Source: an uncultured Sulfuricella sp. (GTDB lineage Bacteria > Pseudomonadota > Gammaproteobacteria > Burkholderiales > Sulfuricellaceae). Taken from it: a DNA stretch of 64,000 nt. The stretch lies in assembly GCA_964527565.1 (NCBI GenBank), contig CAZGOY010000001.1, forward strand, positions 66,495 to 130,494. Direction: 5' to 3'. How positions within the stretch are numbered: position 1 is the stretch's first letter; the number at the start of each line of letters is the position of its first letter. Positions 7,937 through 15,808 of the stretch are shown piece by piece. A program made the translations under genes and the position numbers. The notes beneath the pieces were generated by a model. That model was given only the letters and a program-made list of their open reading frames with translations. It ran no database searches and was not told the origin of the DNA.

Positions 7937-8716
7937 TCACCCCGCGCCGGGACGCGCCGGAAATAATGTATCAGAGATGGCGTTGTGCAGCGTTCCTGCC
8001 AGTTCGCGCCGGTTCCGGCCATGCGGCGCCAGCAGGGCGGTGAAGTGCAATTCGGCCTGGATGGCCGGGCGCCGCAGGATGTTGCGCAGGCTGTCGCCGA
8101 AGGAGAGATCGTCGATATAGGCGGGCGCCGTGTCGGGTTCGCCGTTTTCACCAGTGTAACGTATCGCCACTGCCTGTAGCGGGGCATCGGCATCAATCGC
8201 CGGTTGCAGCAGCGCGGCGTGGAAATGCCGCACCTGGCGCCCATCGGTGGTGGTGCCTTCCGGGAACAGGGCGACGAAATCGCCTTCGTGCAGGGCGCTT
8301 TCGATGTCGCGGTTGGCGCGACCGGCGTCGCGGCGGCTGCTACGGTCGAGGAACAGGGTGCCGGTGCGGGCGGACAGAAAGCCGACCAGCGGCCAGCCGC
8401 GCACTTCGCTCTTGGCGACGAAACGCATCGGGTGCACGGCATTCAGCAGGAAAATGTCCAGCCAGGAAATGTGGTTGGCGGCTAACAGTATCCCGCCCCC
8501 GCACCCACTCCGTCGGGGAGCGTCTCCCCGTATGGTCAGGCGGATACGGAGAATGTCCAGCAATTTTGCCGACCAGTTACGGACCAGCCTGCTGCGTGCG
8601 CAGGGAGCGAGAAACGGGAACAGCAGGGCGGCGCTCAGTAGCCCCCGAAGCACATGCAGCGCCAGGCGTGTTGCGCGCGCCAGGCGGATGATGGGCGCGG
8701 TCTGCGGATAATTCAA
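7937..8716 (-). CDS. Lysophospholipid (1-acyl-sn-glycerol-3-phosphate) acyltransferase family protein
   Basis: HxxxxD box 'NHISWLDI' and 'FPEGTTTDG'. There is no in-frame ATG near the N-terminus. A TTG at 8716 overlaps the upstream stop (TTGA), so the start is uncertain. Confidence 0.7.
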   Translation of the reverse strand: MNYPQTAPIIRLARATRLALHVLRGLLSAALLFPFLAPCARSRLVRNWSAKLLDILRIRLTIRGDAPRRSGCGGGILLAANHISWLDIFLLNAVHPMRFVAKSEVRGWPLVGFLSARTGTLFLDRSSRRDAGRANRDIESALHEGDFVALFPEGTTTDGRQVRHFHAALLQPAIDADAPLQAVAIRYTGENGEPDTAPAYIDDLSFGDSLRNILRRPAIQAELHFTALLAPHGRNRRELAGTLHNAISDTLFPARPGAG

Positions 8717-9282
8717 AAGGCGATGCTGTCCACAACCAGGGTGTCGCGCAGGCCTTTCAACACGTTCTTGACGGCCTCGGGCGCTTCGATCTCGATGATC
8801 TGGTCGATGATCCACGATTGGTCCTGCTTGCCCATCAGTTCCATGATGCGGTTGCCGAGGTAGCGCAGGGTGGAATAGTCCGGCTCTTCGGCGTAGTCGA
8901 AGAGAGCGTAGTCGCCAAGGCGCGCGTTGAGCAGGCCGACGAAGCGCGTCCGGTAGTCCGCGTCCTCAGGCGGTCCAAAGCGTGCGAGTTGGTTGTCTTC
9001 AAGGATTTCTCCCAGGCGCTTGGCTACCGCCTGTACCACCGGCGCACGCAATTCGCCTCCCAGGCGCAGGTAGGCGACGCGGTCGGTCAACTGAACGAAA
9101 AAGGCGAGGAATTCGCCGATCATGTCGAAAGCCTGCTGTTGCGAGGCGATCTCGAATTTGTCCTTTTGAATATGCGTGACGGTTTCTTCGGTCACGCGCC
9201 AGATGATGAAGGCGATGACGCTGGCAACCTGTTGCACGGTTTTCGGCTTGTCGCCCTTGTGCCATTGGGATTTTATGCGCAT
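8713..9282 (-). CDS. Hypothetical protein (about 189 aa)
   Basis: ORF with plausible start 'MRIKSQWHKGDKP'. It is packed between sseA and the acyltransferase with overlapping stop/start codons. No family recognised. Confidence 0.55.
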   Translation of the reverse strand: MRIKSQWHKGDKPKTVQQVASVIAFIIWRVTEETVTHIQKDKFEIASQQQAFDMIGEFLAFFVQLTDRVAYLRLGGELRAPVVQAVAKRLGEILEDNQLARFGPPEDADYRTRFVGLLNARLGDYALFDYAEEPDYSTLRYLGNRIMELMGKQDQSWIIDQIIEIEAPEAVKNVLKGLRDTLVVDSIAF

Positions 9283-10172
9283 GGCAGCCCTCTTTCTCCC
9301 TCGTGGTGGCACGGTAGCAGGCCGCCCTCACCGGTTTCCACCGGGCGGGCCGGGTCGGTGATCCATTCGCTCCACGAACCGGGGTAAAGCCGGGAGCCGT
9401 GCAGGCCGGCGGCCTCCATGGCCAGAATGTTGTGGCAGGCGGTGACGCCGGAGCCGCAGGTGTGGATGACGTTTTCCGGCGCTTGTCCGCCGAGCAGGTT
9501 CAGATAGCTGTCGCGCAATTCCTCGGCGGGCAGGAAGGTGCCGCCCATGTCGAGGTTTTCCTCGAACGACCAATTGCACGAGCCGGGGATATGGCCGGCT
9601 ACCTTGTCTAGCGGTTCGCGCTCTCCGGTGAAGCGTTCTTCAGGGCGCGCATCGACGATGCGGCGGTCAAGGGCATGGCGGGCGGCATCGACTTCGGTGA
9701 CGTCCGCCCAGGTGTTGCGGTTGGGCCGGGCGCTGAATTGCGCCGGCGAAACGACGGGCATTTCCTGGGTCACGGGGTATTTGTCGCGCTTCCAGCGCGG
9801 CAGGCCGCCGTCGAGCAGGGCGACCGCATCGTGTCCCAGCCAGCGCAACAGCCACCACAGGCGCACAGCCATGCTGCCGAAACTGTCGTCGTATACCACC
9901 ACCTGCGTGCCGGGGCCGACGCCCCACTGGCCGAGCTTGTACGCAAGCGCCTCGGGATCGGGCAGGGGGTGGCGCCCGCTGGTGGAAGTGATCGGGCTGG
10001 ACAGGTCTTCATCGAGGTGCGCGTAACGCGCGCCGGGAATATGCCCGGCGGCATGGGCGCGCCGTCCGGCATCGGGGTCGGTGAGCGTGAAGCGGCAGTC
10101 GAACACCACCCAATCCGGGTCGTTGAGATGCTGCGCCAGTTGCGCGCAGGAGAGGAGTGTCGTGAATTTCAT
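9273..10172 (-). CDS. sseA: 3-mercaptopyruvate / thiosulfate sulfurtransferase (tandem rhodanese domains)
   Basis: 299 aa; active-site loop 'CGSGVTA' is typical of MST-type rhodaneses; also 'GHIPGA'. Confidence 0.85.
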   Translation of the reverse strand: MKFTTLLSCAQLAQHLNDPDWVVFDCRFTLTDPDAGRRAHAAGHIPGARYAHLDEDLSSPITSTSGRHPLPDPEALAYKLGQWGVGPGTQVVVYDDSFGSMAVRLWWLLRWLGHDAVALLDGGLPRWKRDKYPVTQEMPVVSPAQFSARPNRNTWADVTEVDAARHALDRRIVDARPEERFTGEREPLDKVAGHIPGSCNWSFEENLDMGGTFLPAEELRDSYLNLLGGQAPENVIHTCGSGVTACHNILAMEAAGLHGSRLYPGSWSEWITDPARPVETGEGGLLPCHHEGERGLPCA

Positions 10173-10229
10173 GTCTTGACGTGGGTATGAGGTGTCGGGG
10201 GCGAGGCGTCCGCCTCACCCCTCGCAAGG

Positions 10230-10562
10230 TCAGTAGCCGCCTTTGCCGAATGGCTTAGGCAAACCGGCAACCTTGGCGGACTGGCGGTTGGGTTGCATCG
10301 GGAACAGCGTGTAAAGGTGTTTTTTCCAGTCGGTGCCGGGGTGGCTGGCGTCGAAATCCTTGCACATGTTGCGGAAGTTCGGGGTGTGACCATGCTCCTT
10401 GTACTGCTCGCGCATGTAGTTGATGACCGTCCAGTGGTCGTCGGTAAGCTTGAGGCCTTCGGATTCGGCGATCACCGGCACTACGTCATCGCTGTAATCG
10501 GCTTCCAGCAGAAAACCCTCGTCGTCGGTCTCAAGTTCGGCGCCATTCACGGTGTAGCTCAT
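10230..10562 (-). CDS. TusE/DsrC-family protein lacking both C-terminal arm cysteines
   Basis: 110 aa, collinear with the genuine DsrC at 15476-15808. The arm reads 'RQSAKVAGLPKPFGKGGY' instead of 'KQACKIAGLPKPTGCI'. Confidence 0.85.
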   Translation of the reverse strand: MSYTVNGAELETDDEGFLLEADYSDDVVPVIAESEGLKLTDDHWTVINYMREQYKEHGHTPNFRNMCKDFDASHPGTDWKKHLYTLFPMQPNRQSAKVAGLPKPFGKGGY

Positions 10563-10607
10563 GGTATTTCCTCCTTTTGGTTGAGTGTGGGTAAAAATAA
10601 ATATGGA

Positions 10608-11174
10608 TTATACGAGTGCATTGATCGATTTGTGCGGAATGAAAACCCCGCAGCCCAGCTTGCGGTTGCCGCCCAGTCCCAGTTGCTGGACGCGGATGGC
10701 GTGTTCGACCGGCAGGCCGTGTAGCATCAGGCTGAAACCGGCCACCGCGCCATCCTCGGTGGTGAGGGTTTGCTGGCGGCCGCAAATGAAGCGGGTATCT
10801 ATGCCCAATTCATCGAGCAGGCGCATGATGTCGCGGGCAAAATCGCCTTCGTCGGCGCTGCCGGTGGTCACCAGTTGGGCATATAGCGGGGTGTGATGCG
10901 TCAGCGCCTTGACCTTGCCGGCACCGATAAGCAGCGCGTTGCCGACTACGCTGATGGTCTGGCCGTCCAGGGCCAGCGTGTCGTCCAGGCGTTCTTGCGG
11001 GATGCGGATCACCAGCTTGGCACGCCGGTTGAGGAGCAGCGTGCCATCGCCGCAGTCGGAGCCGTGCAGCGGGTGAATAGCGGCCAGGTTTTCCTGCGCC
11101 AGCCAGGGCAGCAGGCGCGCCAGTTCATCGAACAGGGCAAGGCCGTGATCCTTGGGGACGCGTGTGCCGCTCAA
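10608..11174 (-). CDS. Cas6/Cmx6-like RAMP-superfamily protein (orphan; no CRISPR array or other cas genes in the window)
   Basis: C-terminal glycine-rich loop 'QQLGLGGNRKLGCGVFIPHK', plus 'VPKDHGLALFDELARLLPWL' and 'IHPLHG' resembling the orphan type I-MYXAN Cas6/Cmx6 family as I remember it. The listed start is a TTG. The frame stays open 23 codons further upstream (to 11243) with no ATG/GTG/TTG. Confidence 0.5.
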   Translation of the reverse strand: MSGTRVPKDHGLALFDELARLLPWLAQENLAAIHPLHGSDCGDGTLLLNRRAKLVIRIPQERLDDTLALDGQTISVVGNALLIGAGKVKALTHHTPLYAQLVTTGSADEGDFARDIMRLLDELGIDTRFICGRQQTLTTEDGAVAGFSLMLHGLPVEHAIRVQQLGLGGNRKLGCGVFIPHKSINALV

Positions 11175-11239
11175 CCCGAACTGGACGTCGATAACCGCTT
11201 GGTCATCAACTGTGGGGGCGGATTTTTCAGCCGGCCAGC

Positions 11240-11494
11240 CTATTTTTCTTCTCCTGTTTGTGCCGCTGCTTTTTGCGCCGCAGACCAGTCCAGCAGGGCC
11301 TGCCCCCAGTGCTCAGCGGTGGCGGGGTCGATGTCGAAAACGGTAAAGCGCTTGATTTCCCGGATGCGTACGCGCAAAGTGCGGAACCCGGCGTCGTGAT
11401 CGACTTGCATCAGTTCGATCTCTTGGCGAAAGGGGGTGGCAAGGAACTTGCCGAGTGTGGTGGCCTGTTCCATGCCCATGCCGTAGTCGAGCAT
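11240..11494 (-). CDS. Hypothetical small protein (about 80 aa)
   Basis: ORF immediately upstream of the Cas6-like gene on the same strand. Its last codons carry the AGGAG that would serve the Cas6-like frame. No family recognised. Confidence 0.45.
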   Translation of the reverse strand: MLDYGMGMEQATTLGKFLATPFRQEIELMQVDHDAGFRTLRVRIREIKRFTVFDIDPATAEHWGQALLDWSAAQKAAAQTGEEK

Positions 11495-11554
11495 TTCGTG
11501 CGCCTCGCTTAGAGTGTGTTGCGTGAATGTTCGGGGGAAAGTCCTGCCGCATTA

Positions 11555-11642
11555 TATGGGGAATTGTTCGCCGAAGATCAAGGGGTGGCGCCCATACCCC
11601 AAGGTGGGGGAGGACCCCATACCCCATTCGGGTAGTATGGGG
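11555..11642. repeat. Cluster of four TATGGGG/CCCATAC heptamer-type motifs, including an 8+3 bp hairpin, in the divergent region upstream of dsrA
   Basis: TATGGGG at 11555-11561. CCCATAC at 11591-11597 and 11616-11622. GTATGGG at 11635-11641. CCCCATAC (11615-11622) pairs with GTATGGGG (11635-11642), and an inner CCC/GGG stem is also possible. Confidence 0.35.
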
Positions 11643-11859
11643 GCACCCGTGAAGAATGATAGAAAGACGGGCTCCATCGGTTGTAACATGCGGCCACGGT
11701 ACTAGGTGTTTCCCCGATGCGCGCGTTCGCTGATCGGGAAGCCGCGAGGAAGTACAAGGTGGCTCGCCACGAAATTTCAGGTTTTGCCGAAAGGGATGCC
11801 GGCGTTCCGGGTTTGAACTGGGAGACGCGTCCGTTTTAATTTTCTAGGAGATTGATGAT

Positions 11860-13161
11860 ATGGCCAAGAAACAATACGACACGCCAATGCTGGACCAGTT
11901 GGAAAGCGGCCCCTGGCCCAGCTTTGTAACTGGCCTGAAGCGCCTTGCCAAAGACAACGACATGATGGTTGACCTGATGGGTCAACTGGAAACCTCCTAC
12001 AAGACCAAAAAAGGTTACTGGAAGGGCGGCACGGTCGGGGTCTTCGGTTACGGCGGCGGCGTGATCCCGCGCTTCACCGAACTCAAGGACGAGCATGAGA
12101 AGCCCATGTTTCCTGATGCGGCCGAGTTCCACACCATTCGTATCATTCCGGCAGCCGGGATGCACTACACCACCGACATCCTGCGCAAGCTGTGCGACGC
12201 CTGGGTCGACAACGGCGGTTCCGGTCTGGCGGCGTTCCACGGCCAATCCGGCGACATCATGTTCCAGGGCATCAATACCGCCAACGTACAGAAGGCTTTC
12301 GACGCCTTCAACGAAATGGGTTTCGACCTGGGTGGTGCCGGCCCCGCCGTGCGTACCTCCATGTCCTGCGTCGGCGCAGCGCGTTGCGAGCAGTCCTGCT
12401 TCGACGAAGCCCGCGCCATGCGCCAGGTCGTCAACGCCTTCCTCGACGACATGCACCGCCCGGCCCTGCCGTACAAGATCAAGTTCAAGTTCTCCGGTTG
12501 CCCGAACGACTGCACCAACTCCATTCAACGTTCCGACATTGCCGTCATCGGCACCTGGCGCGACAGCATCCGTACCGACGAAGCGCTGGCCAAGGCTTGG
12601 TTCGCCAAGCACGGCATGGACGAGCTGGTCAACGACGTGATCAACCACTGCCCGACCAAGGCGCTGGCGCTGAAAGAAACCGCCAAGGTTTCCAAGGCTG
12701 AAGGCGTCTCCAGTGTCGCGGTCAACGACAGCCAGTCGCTGGAAATCAGCAACCACGACTGCGTGCGCTGCATGCACTGCATCAACGTCATGACCGGCGC
12801 GCTGGCTCCCGGCAAGGACAAGGGCGTCACTGTTCTGGTCGGCGGCAAGAGCGTGCTGAAGATCGGCGCAACCATGGGTACCGTGGTAATTCCGTTCATG
12901 AAGCTGGAATCCGACGAGGACTTCGAGGCGTTGGTGGAATTCGGTCAGAACCACATCGATTTCTTCGCCGAAAACGCACTGGAGCATGAGCGTAGCGGCG
13001 AGATGATCGACCGCATCGGTCTGGTCAACTACCTCGAAGGTGTCGGCCTCGAGATCGATCCCTCCATGGTGCTGCAACCGCGCGCCAACCCCTATGTCCG
13101 CATGGACGGCTGGGACGAGGAAGTGGAAAAGGCCAACGAACGCAAAGCCAAGGCTGCCTGA
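11860..13161 (+). CDS. dsrA: Dissimilatory (reverse-type) sulfite reductase alpha subunit
   Basis: 433 aa. N-terminus 'MAKKQYDTPMLDQLESGPWPSFVTG', siroheme/Fe-S cysteine clusters, and position first in the dsr locus. Confidence 0.95.
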   Translation: MAKKQYDTPMLDQLESGPWPSFVTGLKRLAKDNDMMVDLMGQLETSYKTKKGYWKGGTVGVFGYGGGVIPRFTELKDEHEKPMFPDAAEFHTIRIIPAAGMHYTTDILRKLCDAWVDNGGSGLAAFHGQSGDIMFQGINTANVQKAFDAFNEMGFDLGGAGPAVRTSMSCVGAARCEQSCFDEARAMRQVVNAFLDDMHRPALPYKIKFKFSGCPNDCTNSIQRSDIAVIGTWRDSIRTDEALAKAWFAKHGMDELVNDVINHCPTKALALKETAKVSKAEGVSSVAVNDSQSLEISNHDCVRCMHCINVMTGALAPGKDKGVTVLVGGKSVLKIGATMGTVVIPFMKLESDEDFEALVEFGQNHIDFFAENALEHERSGEMIDRIGLVNYLEGVGLEIDPSMVLQPRANPYVRMDGWDEEVEKANERKAKAA

Positions 13162-13203
13162 TAGGCCGGTCGAAAACGAACTAAACAAGTTTGGAGAGAA
13201 ACG

Positions 13204-14274
13204 ATGAGTGAAATGCGTGAACCGATTGAGAGCGGCGTACCAGATCACGTGCAGTACCTGCACCCGCTGATGAAGAAAAACTACGGCAACTGGAAATACC
13301 ACAACCGTCCGCGTCCCGGCGTGCTCCATCATGTGGCGCACAGCGGCGACGAAATCTGGACGGTGCGTGCCGGCACCCAGCGTCAGATGGACGTCTACAC
13401 CATTCGCACCTTGTGCGATATCGCCGACCAGTTCGCCGAAGGCCATGTCCGCTTCACCACCCGCAGCAACATCGAATTCATGGTGTCTGCCGAAGCCAAG
13501 GTTGCCCCGCTGATCGAAGCGCTGGGCAAGGGCGGTTTCCCGGTCGGCGGCACGGGCAATTCCGTGTCCATGATTTCCCACACCCAGGGCTGGCTGCACT
13601 GCGACATCCCCGGCACCGACGCTTCCGGCGTGGTGAAGGCGTTGATGGACGAACTCCATGATGAATTCATCAAGGAAGAAATGCCCAACCGCGTCAAGCT
13701 GTCCACCTCCTGCTGCGAAATCAACTGCGGCGGCCAGGCCGACATCGCCATCGTGGTGCAACACACCAAGCCGCCGAAGATCAACCACGATCTGGTGGCC
13801 AACGTGTGCGAACGCCCGACCGTCGTGGCGCGCTGCCCGGTAGCGGCGATTCGTCCCGCGCTGGTCAACGGCAAGCCTTCCCTGGAAGTGGACGAAGCCA
13901 AGTGCATCTGTTGCGGCGCCTGCTTCCCGCCCTGCCCGCCGATGCAGATCAACGATCCCGAGCATTCCAAGATCGCCATCTGGGTCGGTGGTAAGAACTC
14001 CAATGCGCGCATCCGCCCGACCTTCCACAAGCTGGTCACCTCCGGTCTGCCCAACAACGCTCCGCGCTGGCCCGAAGTGGCTGCCGTGGTGAAGAACATC
14101 CTCAAGACCTATAAGGAAGACGCCCGTCCTTGGGAGCGGATGTCCGACTGGGTCGAGCGCATCGGCTGGCCGCAATTCTTCGAGAAGACCGGCCTGCCGT
14201 TCACCAAGTTCCACATCGACGACTGGCGCGGTTCGCGTTCCACGCTGAACGCTTCCACGCATATCCGCTTCTGA
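13204..14274 (+). CDS. dsrB: Dissimilatory sulfite reductase beta subunit
   Basis: 356 aa with ferredoxin-like insert 'CICCGACFPPCP'; immediately follows dsrA. Confidence 0.95.
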   Translation: MSEMREPIESGVPDHVQYLHPLMKKNYGNWKYHNRPRPGVLHHVAHSGDEIWTVRAGTQRQMDVYTIRTLCDIADQFAEGHVRFTTRSNIEFMVSAEAKVAPLIEALGKGGFPVGGTGNSVSMISHTQGWLHCDIPGTDASGVVKALMDELHDEFIKEEMPNRVKLSTSCCEINCGGQADIAIVVQHTKPPKINHDLVANVCERPTVVARCPVAAIRPALVNGKPSLEVDEAKCICCGACFPPCPPMQINDPEHSKIAIWVGGKNSNARIRPTFHKLVTSGLPNNAPRWPEVAAVVKNILKTYKEDARPWERMSDWVERIGWPQFFEKTGLPFTKFHIDDWRGSRSTLNASTHIRF

Positions 14275-15475: not shown

Positions 15476-15808
15476 ATGGGTTTTGAAATCAACGGCAAGA
15501 CGTATGAAACCGACGAAGAAGGCTACCTGGTCAACCTCGCCGAATGGGATGAAGAAGCCGCCAAGTACCTGGCCACCGAAGAGAAGGTTGAAATGACCGA
15601 AAGCCACTGGGAAGTGGTGAACTTCCTGCGCGAGTACTACAACGACTACCAGATTGCTCCTGCTGTGCGCGTGCTGACCAAGGCCATCGGCAAGAAGCTG
15701 GGACCGGAAAAGGGCAACAGCAAGTACCTGTATGAGCTGTTCCCGTATGGTCCGGCCAAGCAGGCATGCAAGATCGCCGGCCTGCCGAAGCCGACCGGTT
15801 GTATCTAA
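15476..15808 (+). CDS. dsrC: DsrC, the sulfur-carrier substrate protein of DsrAB/DsrMKJOP
   Basis: 110 aa ending 'QACKIAGLPKPTGCI', with both conserved arm cysteines (CysB-X10-CysA). Confidence 0.95.
   Translation: MGFEINGKTYETDEEGYLVNLAEWDEEAAKYLATEEKVEMTESHWEVVNFLREYYNDYQIAPAVRVLTKAIGKKLGPEKGNSKYLYELFPYGPAKQACKIAGLPKPTGCI

Follow-up and report, generated by a model that had tools for sequence, protein, structure and literature searches.

Why does a gene that resembles the CRISPR endoribonuclease Cas6 stand beside the dsr genes of a sulfur oxidiser, and how is it translated if its conserved N-terminus offers no canonical start codon? The question arises in a stretch of 64,000 nucleotides (nt) from an uncultured Sulfuricella sp. 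(assembly GCA_964527565.1, contig CAZGOY010000001.1, positions 66,495 to 130,494), hereafter the window, in which the database open reading frame (ORF) for the gene lies at positions 10608..11174 of the minus strand, begins with TTG and encodes 188 residues ending in ...GLGGNRKLGCGVFIPHKSINALV. An original prediction, made from the letters of the DNA, had described the gene as an orphan, noted a resemblance to the Cas6/Cmx6 proteins and questioned the annotated start. The explanation that we favour as a whole is a Cas6-fold protein that works outside CRISPR as an accessory of the dsr locus and is translated from an AUA start codon, and we give it a probability of about 0.72.

The ORF encodes a genuine RAMP protein of the Cas6/Cmx6 family by both sequence and fold, and the resemblance noted originally is confirmed. 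Translated from the ATA codon discussed below, the protein matches the whole of the Pfam profile PF09559 'Cas6' (positions 1-191, 205 bits, E=1.3e-60; cutoff 26.7 bits), scores 160.4 bits with the NCBIfam model TIGR02807 'type I-MYXAN Cas6/Cmx6', exceeding the cutoff of 98.85 bits, and is hit by six PADLOC Cas6 models. A profile of 28 orthologues retrieved one solved relative, the Cas6 of the type I-B CRISPR-associated transposon (CAST) Cascade (8fcj_B, E=2.3e-29, 28% identity). The AlphaFold (AF2) model, with a predicted local distance difference test (pLDDT) score of 74 and residues 1-11 disordered, has 8fcj_B and 8fcu_B (TM 0.73) as its best Foldseek matches, followed by Pyrococcus Cas6, Cse3 and Cas6e. 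The hidden Markov model (HMM) matches, the profile match to 8fcj_B and the model fold therefore concur on family membership. The window protein and 8fcj_B share a double ferredoxin-like fold, full-length homology and a nearly identical C-terminal loop, G-[LI]-G-G-x-R-K-x-x-C-G-[IV]-F, within which the glycine-rich GLGGNRKLGCGVF aligns with GIGGKRKMMCGIF of 8fcj_B. The window protein differs from 8fcj_B in adding a disordered 17-residue N-terminal extension that begins (M)GW, and in its His175, which is invariant in the two clades described below and is a serine in 8fcj_B.

To place the gene in its genomic context, we compared the DNA of the best 80 of 463 confirmed relatives, one genome per GTDB species; counts out of 81 given below comprise the window and these 80 loci. 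They come from Sulfuricella, Sulfurimicrobium, Sulfurirhabdus, Sulfuriferula, Thiobacillus/Thiobacillaceae and related uncultured betaproteobacteria. A tblastn search of the window neighbours against these loci recovered the same order in 80/80: dsrA and dsrB run in one direction and, divergently from them, genes for DUF6967, the Cas6-like protein, a DsrC-like protein, a rhodanese and a 190-residue protein run in the other, the exceptions being that DUF6967 is missing in ten loci and that a few contigs stop early. A sister clade of 565 proteins, ~39% identical to the window protein and named Gallionellaceae, Sideroxydans or Nitrosomonadales in the source records, has a matching module, with TusA instead of rhodanese, in the three Gallionellaceae-type loci that were read (L083, L085 and L086). 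The Cas6-like gene has a fixed place in a conserved operon linked to dsr, and the label of orphan has to be withdrawn. Searches of the accessible literature turned up no account of a dsr-linked Cas6, of DUF6967 or of the five-gene module.

What might the protein do in this setting? Across both dsr-linked clades the glycine-rich loop (G-L-G-x-x-R-x-x-G-C-G-x-F-x-x-x-K) is invariant, together with R80 and H175, and this conservation makes RNA binding plausible; the basic residues R80, R194 and K205 are likewise unchanged. The protein may still bind, and perhaps cut, a specific RNA stem-loop within a nucleic-acid-binding regulatory module for dsr. A regulatory role exerted through RNA binding is possible, although we hold it to be doubtful.

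The main functional alternative is that the Cas6 fold has been reused without RNA, for example to act as partner or scaffold for the DsrC-like protein and for rhodanese or TusA in cytoplasmic sulfur trafficking to rDsr. The gene is indeed always found beside a sulfur-carrier gene (rhodanese or TusA) and a gene for a DsrC-family protein, the candidate catalytic histidines vary across the clades, and a search for an RNA target, described below, found none. Against a role without RNA stand the invariance of the RNA-binding loop and of R80, R194 and K205 over both clades and the weak resemblance of DUF6967 to single-stranded nucleic-acid binders; in addition, with both redox-active cysteines replaced, the C-terminal arm of the DsrC-like partner is unable to carry sulfur. 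DsrC has the arm motif AGLPKPTG-x-C-x and two conserved C-terminal cysteines (PMC8477390). The canonical DsrC of the window (15476-15808) ends in ...CKIAGLPKPTGCI, whereas the DsrC-like protein encoded after the Cas6-like gene in 80/80 loci ends in ...AGLPKPFGKGGY, both C-terminal cysteines being absent, in agreement with the original description of a Cys-less DsrC neighbour. Compared with DsrC, TusE and RspA, it retains the AGLPKP arm motif and replaces the cysteines within a conserved end ...AGLPKP(F/Y)GKGGY, with GKGGY present in all but one of the 81 tabulated C-termini. Judged from its sequence, this protein is unable to act as a DsrC-type sulfur or trisulfide carrier. We consider a purely scaffolding function of the Cas6-like protein unlikely.

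A working crRNA-processing Cas6 (crRNA, CRISPR RNA) that acts for a CRISPR-Cas system located at another site of the genome, and whose dsr neighbourhood is coincidental, would explain the score above the 'equivalog' cutoff of TIGR02807 and a glycine-rich loop nearly identical to that of the Cascade-bound Cas6. Neither the window nor the 81 loci, however, provide the context by which a Cas6 is recognised, namely a CRISPR array with other cas genes. As originally reported for the 64 kb, no CRISPR array was found in the window (tandem-repeat, TRF, and direct-repeat scans), and none of the 62 predicted window ORFs searched against the PADLOC models was another cas gene, Cas6 being the sole cas family matched; a k-mer scan of the 81 loci, 860 kb in total, found no CRISPR-like array either, these scans covering the window and the loci and not whole genomes. 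The identical dsr-linked synteny in 80 species-level genomes and in the sister clade also speaks against coincidence, and so strict a linkage to a metabolic locus is unexpected of a defence gene. We regard service to a distant CRISPR system as very improbable. The gene differs from a CRISPR Cas6 in being fixed at dsr, in having no array or cas genes nearby and in its probable AUA/AUC start.

Where, then, does translation begin? Upstream of the TTG, the cas6 frame of the window runs without a stop through 45 codons to a TGA, and this stretch contains no ATG, GTG or TTG. The original prediction had counted 23 open codons, which is the distance from the ATA to the TTG and is free of these codons, as it had said; it fell short of the full extent of the open frame. 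It had correctly placed an in-frame ATA at 11243-11241, overlapping the stop of the upstream gene, with AGGAG 7 nt before it. In the transcript, this AUA overlaps the UAG stop of DUF6967 (11242-11240) as AUAG, and a 7-nt gap is typical of functional Shine-Dalgarno sites.

The arrangement is conserved among the orthologues, whose alignment spans 100% of the protein extended to the ATA. The codon at the start position is ATA in 56 loci, ATC in 23 and ATG in 2. It opens an I-G-W motif, AT[A/C]GGCTGG, in 77/81 loci, and a further locus, L067, has ATA AGC TGG. GGAG begins at -11 in ~69/81, at -10 in 5 and at -12 in 1, and is absent from both ATG-start loci. No canonical start is available upstream in the open frame in 42/77 loci; an in-frame stop lies at most six codons before the I codon in 13 loci, one codon before it in L063; and in L016, L018 and L072 the first canonical codon is reached only at codon 42-55, inside the domain. 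The ten loci without DUF6967 retain GGAG-N7-AT[AC]GGCTGG. Database orthologues carry the label 'type I-MYXAN Cas6/Cmx6' with inconsistent N-termini and lengths of 171 to 235 residues; among the N-termini inspected there is none that starts at the conserved I-G-W.

The substitution pattern changes frame at this codon. In the 17 codons that follow the I codon, position 3 of the cas6 frame accounts for 69% of the single-nucleotide codon differences, and 53% are synonymous, whereas in the 12 codons that precede it 63% occur at position 1 of the cas6 frame, equivalent to position 3 in the frame of DUF6967; the pairs compared are phylogenetically non-independent, yet the contrast is large. On a neighbour-joining tree we counted at least six start-codon changes, at least five of them switches between ATA and ATC within the 78-tip main clade, and no switch to ATG, GTG, TTG or ATT in that clade; ATA to ATG requires a single transition only. 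The two most divergent orthologues have an ATG within a few codons of the I-codon site (the sequence is TTG-ATG-GAG... in L077, and in L079 an ATGA overlaps the stop of DUF6967), and the sister clade starts with ATG, with the N-terminus M-x-N-x-x-P-E-M-x-D. In the ATC-type loci the DUF6967 stop lies three codons further downstream, which indicates that moving the stop is tolerated. Together, the codon counts, the fixed GGAG, the upstream stops, the frame switch and the tree point to a start at AUA/AUC and to the maintenance of a weak codon, and the true start in the window is very probably the AUA at 11243-11241 rather than the TTG. Among the three options originally listed, a non-canonical ATA start, probably aided by coupling, is the one favoured by the comparison of loci, whereas conservation in ~79 genomes excludes a pseudogene or a mutated start codon.

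These data bear directly on the other candidate starts. Gene finders chose the TTG at 11174 for the window protein, and this codon encodes the conserved leucine of F-x-L-x-G, so an NTG is often present there; were it the real start, the conservation upstream would have to be incidental or imposed at the DNA level. The PF09559 match, however, starts at residue 18, six codons upstream of the TTG, and initiation at the TTG would remove the first six residues of the profile, which form beta-strand 1, as the original prediction of a truncated N-terminus had implied. The 17 codons that come after the I codon show third-position and synonymous substitution in the cas6 frame, the Shine-Dalgarno sequence is fixed relative to the I codon and not to the TTG, and many orthologues have CTG or no start codon at the TTG position. 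An authentic TTG start is accordingly hard to credit.

A programmed -1 frameshift at A-AAA-UAG, fusing DUF6967 to the Cas6-like protein, is similarly remote. In ATA-type loci the final DUF6967 codon is nearly always AAA, followed by UAG, and the lysine tRNA could re-pair in the -1 frame, in which the next codons read I-G-W; but a stop is missing from that position in the 23 ATC-type loci, the ten loci without any DUF6967 keep the motif, no natural in-frame fusion occurs among more than 1000 homologues (161-235 residues), the two frames are offset differently in the sister clade, which starts with ATG, and no conserved structure lies downstream. A sequencing error or real frameshift, suggested by an ATG in another frame ('ATG ACC AAG...') just before beta-strand 1, finds no support in the orthologous DNA. 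Least credible of all is initiation at an upstream NTG (CTG in the window) inside the DUF6967 gene, which is how about half of the database orthologues are called ('MG.../LG...' proteins of 221-235 residues), since this NTG combines the final base of a DUF6967 codon with the TG from a conserved Trp codon, the near in-frame stops and missing upstream starts noted above recur in 13 and 42/77 loci, and the upstream substitutions track the DUF6967 frame.

We propose that a Cas6-fold RAMP protein left CRISPR and became fixed, as an accessory gene, at the oxidative dsr locus of sulfur-oxidising betaproteobacteria, where it would be the second gene of an operon divergent from dsrAB that encodes DUF6967, the Cas6-like protein and the Cys-less DsrC-like protein, then a sulfur carrier and a protein of ~190 residues. 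GGAG, 7 nt upstream, would position the ribosome at the AUA to yield a 211-residue protein. The start site and the exapted membership of the dsr module, taken jointly, are in our judgement likely.

The conserved near-cognate AUU starts of Escherichia coli infC, which encodes initiation factor 3 (IF3), and of pcnB limit or regulate expression. As in those genes, a canonical start is missing, the Shine-Dalgarno sequence is good and a weak AUH codon is kept across orthologues, which argues for selection for translation that is low or sensitive to IF3; with infC it further shares a start within a few nt of an upstream stop. Unlike in infC and pcnB, the codon is AUA or AUC and never AUU, it overlaps the upstream stop, and the gene has no connection with translation or RNA decay. 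Initiation at AUA, AUC, AUU or CUG in E. coli reporters reaches ~1-2% of that at AUG, and AUC starts carry an N-terminal methionine (bioRxiv 10.1101/063800). We infer that AUA and AUC are decoded as initiators here and that low expression is a selected trait, so that the codon would be kept weak to make the Cas6-like protein scarce compared with its DsrC-like neighbour, which is strongly translated.

Coupling to the upstream gene probably contributes. Where DUF6967 is present, ribosomes that end at the overlapping UAG would probably reinitiate at the AUA as well, and such termination-reinitiation coupling is likely by analogy with the 4-nt AUGA stop/start overlaps, at which reinitiation and de novo initiation both contribute (PMC3592434). 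As in those overlaps, the start takes up the first three of the four positions and the stop the last three, and the Shine-Dalgarno sequence lies inside the upstream gene; the distant orthologue L079 even has a true ATGA at the junction. The parallel is incomplete, as the restart codon is AUA and the arrangement persists without the upstream gene or, in ATC-type loci, with the stop three codons downstream. Coupling cannot be the whole mechanism; the ten loci without DUF6967 retain GGAG-N7-AT[AC].

Table 1. Positions of the Cas6-like gene, its proposed translation signals and the surrounding features in the window.
Feature	Position	Strand	Basis or comment
Cas6-like coding sequence (PF09559/TIGR02807)	10608..11243	-	proposed AUA to TAA stop, 211 codons; HMM, fold, orthologue alignment
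Proposed start codon AUA	11241..11243	-	conservation and cas6-frame periodicity begin here
Shine-Dalgarno AGGAG	11251..11255	-	7 nt upstream of the AUA
DUF6967 (PF22295), 84 residues, operon gene 1	11240..11494	-	Pfam E=2e-27
Cys-less DsrC/TusE-family protein	10230..10562	-	PF04358 E=5e-32, TIGR03342; strong AGGAGG Shine-Dalgarno, ATG start
Spacer with GC-rich hairpin after the DsrC-like gene	10173..10229	-	hairpin/intrinsic-terminator-like in most loci
Two-domain rhodanese (3-mercaptopyruvate sulfurtransferase-like)	9273..10172	-	PF00581, synteny
Conserved protein of ~190 residues, last module member	8713..9312	-	in nearly all main-clade loci
Divergent control region separating dsrA from the DUF6967 operon	11495..11859	.	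conserved composite element ~11586-11690
dsrA 11860-13161, dsrB 13204-14274, then dsrEFHC...	11860..14274	+	ORFs; Pfam NIR_SIR, DsrE, DsrC; tblastn

The other members of the module are summarised in Table 1. DUF6967 has 135 homologues, and every genomic context read is dsr-linked. Its AF2 model (pLDDT 89) comprises four beta-strands and a long helix, the beta-beta-beta-beta-alpha topology of PUR-repeat/PC4-like proteins, which dimerise and bind ssDNA or RNA, and its best matches in the PDB are PUR repeats and PC4-like binders of single-stranded nucleic acids; these matches are weak (E=0.4-4, TM 0.5-0.66), and we treat a PUR-like nucleic-acid-binding function as a lead only. In one lineage (L081/L082, 4847-7195), genes for a TauD protein, a 71-residue ORF, a distant DUF6967 and a CysG-like siroheme synthase lie divergently from dsrAB without a Cas6-like or DsrC-like gene. 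DUF6967 is therefore linked to dsr in its own right, and it adjoins there the synthesis of the DsrAB cofactor.

Terminator-like hairpins after the DsrC-like gene suggest that the DUF6967, Cas6-like and DsrC-like genes probably form a single three-gene transcription unit. In the spacer between the DsrC-like and rhodanese genes of the window and of L001-L079, long imperfect hairpins are found, both arms of which in many lineages consist of tandem heptamers peculiar to the lineage, among them (TGGGTAA)n, (CCGGGTT)n, (ATCAGGG)n and (CTAGGGG)n, and other loci have plain intrinsic terminators there; the hairpin is kept and its sequence evolves fast. The sulfur-carrier slot that follows is also kept, its occupant being interchangeable: in the sister clade a TusA-domain protein of ~160 residues takes the place of rhodanese (L083 7205-7690; L085 5992-6465; L086 6017-6493), and in these three Gallionellaceae/Sideroxydans-type loci a TauD-family dioxygenase often comes after TusA. 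The last protein of the module gave no Pfam or NCBIfam hit. It probably starts at Met11, at 9282 (MRIKSQWHK...), overlapping the end of the rhodanese gene, and has a homologue in 2/3 sister-clade loci, with 39% identity to the 191-residue L083 protein.

Elsewhere in the window, Pfam and PADLOC matches comprise two RuBisCO large-subunit genes, two LysR regulators, a SWI2/SNF2 ATPase, an IS21 IstB-like gene, a phosphoenolpyruvate carboxylase and an AcrB-type pump, and, apart from Cas6, defence matches were limited to a type I restriction system together with a few unrelated PADLOC models. This gene content fits an autotrophic sulfur oxidiser.

The control region between dsrA and the DUF6967 operon holds a composite element that reads, in order, AT(G/A)TTAC; C(C/T)ATCAT...ATGGGT; CTACCC-N4-GGG(N)TA; CCCCC-N4-5-GGG(N)TA; and a -35-like TTGAT. 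Its core in the window, CTACCC-N4-GGGGTA at 11620-11635 (-), corresponds to the originally noted hairpin at 11615-11642 and occurs there in a single copy; the strict core pattern is found in 72/80 loci. The arms of the core are invariant and its four central bases vary freely. There are three related boxes (C-rich arm, N4-5, GGG(N)TA) with a variable one-base bulge (GGGGTA, GGGTTA, GGAGTA, GGGCTA). The three sister-clade loci retain a related core, ATGTTAAATAGCCCGAATGGGGGGG, and the element is absent from the L081/L082 lineage, the one read with DUF6967 but without the Cas6-like and DsrC-like genes. Weak consensus matches, found by eye, place the boxes between two divergent promoters; a sigma-70 promoter scan of the control region returned nothing at threshold.

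Several observations weigh against our reading of the gene. At ~25 loci an in-frame ATG or GTG lies 4-13 codons downstream of the I codon (e.g. IGWPIESGM...) and could serve as an alternative start. The second codon (window 11237-11240) is GGC in 53/57 tabulated loci, with GGT in 2 and GGG in 2, and this near-invariance hints at an RNA- or DNA-level constraint outside our model; in the start region no conserved local RNA structure was found. As for function, RNA cleavage is uncertain, since the sister clade has other residues in place of H33 and H57, which are invariant in the main clade, and 8fcj_B does not keep them either. An RNA target is likewise missing from the places searched: no repeat-like or covarying hairpin was detected in the operon or control region, and RNAalifold gave no consensus structure for the intergenic element on either strand (-0.8 and -2.9 kcal/mol, zero covariation). 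The spacer between the Cas6-like and DsrC-like genes is short, T-rich and unstructured, with no conserved hairpin, and an Rfam scan of 8000-14000 returned only a sub-threshold chance hit.

Single sequences fold better than shuffled ones (z about -2.1), which follows from the palindromes that they contain. The hairpin had originally been assigned to a dsrA leader. It is part of the conserved intergenic element, and the lack of covariation, together with the apparent position between divergent promoters, makes a DNA operator for these promoters the more likely interpretation; an RNA role of the element is unsupported. The Cys-less DsrC-like protein, which contains a helix-turn-helix (HTH), is a candidate binder of this operator.

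How could these parts act together? Post-transcriptional control of dsr by the Cas6-like protein is a hypothesis that draws only indirect support from the conserved loop and from the possible PUR-like fold of DUF6967. In its fuller form, the Cas6-like protein, a PUR-like DUF6967 and the Cys-less DsrC-like protein would bind a stem-loop or G-rich element and so set the fate of dsr mRNA or its transcription, with the AUA/AUC start making the level of the module responsive to IF3 or growth; we consider such a domesticated regulator a tentative and rather improbable proposal. A toxin-antitoxin system, suggested by a small upstream protein, a 4-nt overlap, a palindromic operator and an RNase, was rejected in view of the strict vertical linkage to dsr and the ten lineages that retain the Cas6-like gene without DUF6967.

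The exaptation of the Cas6-like protein and its conserved weak start are well supported. If our interpretation is correct, the gene is a clear and widely conserved case in which the Cas6 endoribonuclease fold has been exapted outside CRISPR into core energy metabolism, that of rDsr, and it would provide an entry point to the poorly understood regulation of dsr in environmentally abundant sulfur oxidisers. The work also defines a five-gene dsr accessory module, made up of DUF6967, the Cas6-like protein, a GKGGY-type DsrC, rhodanese or TusA and the 190-residue protein. For translation, the locus would offer a new and phylogenetically deep example of a selected near-cognate AUA/AUC start, and its pairs of orthologues with a strong Shine-Dalgarno sequence and a weak codon, or a weak Shine-Dalgarno sequence and ATG, would be informative on start-codon choice and for the repair of annotations.

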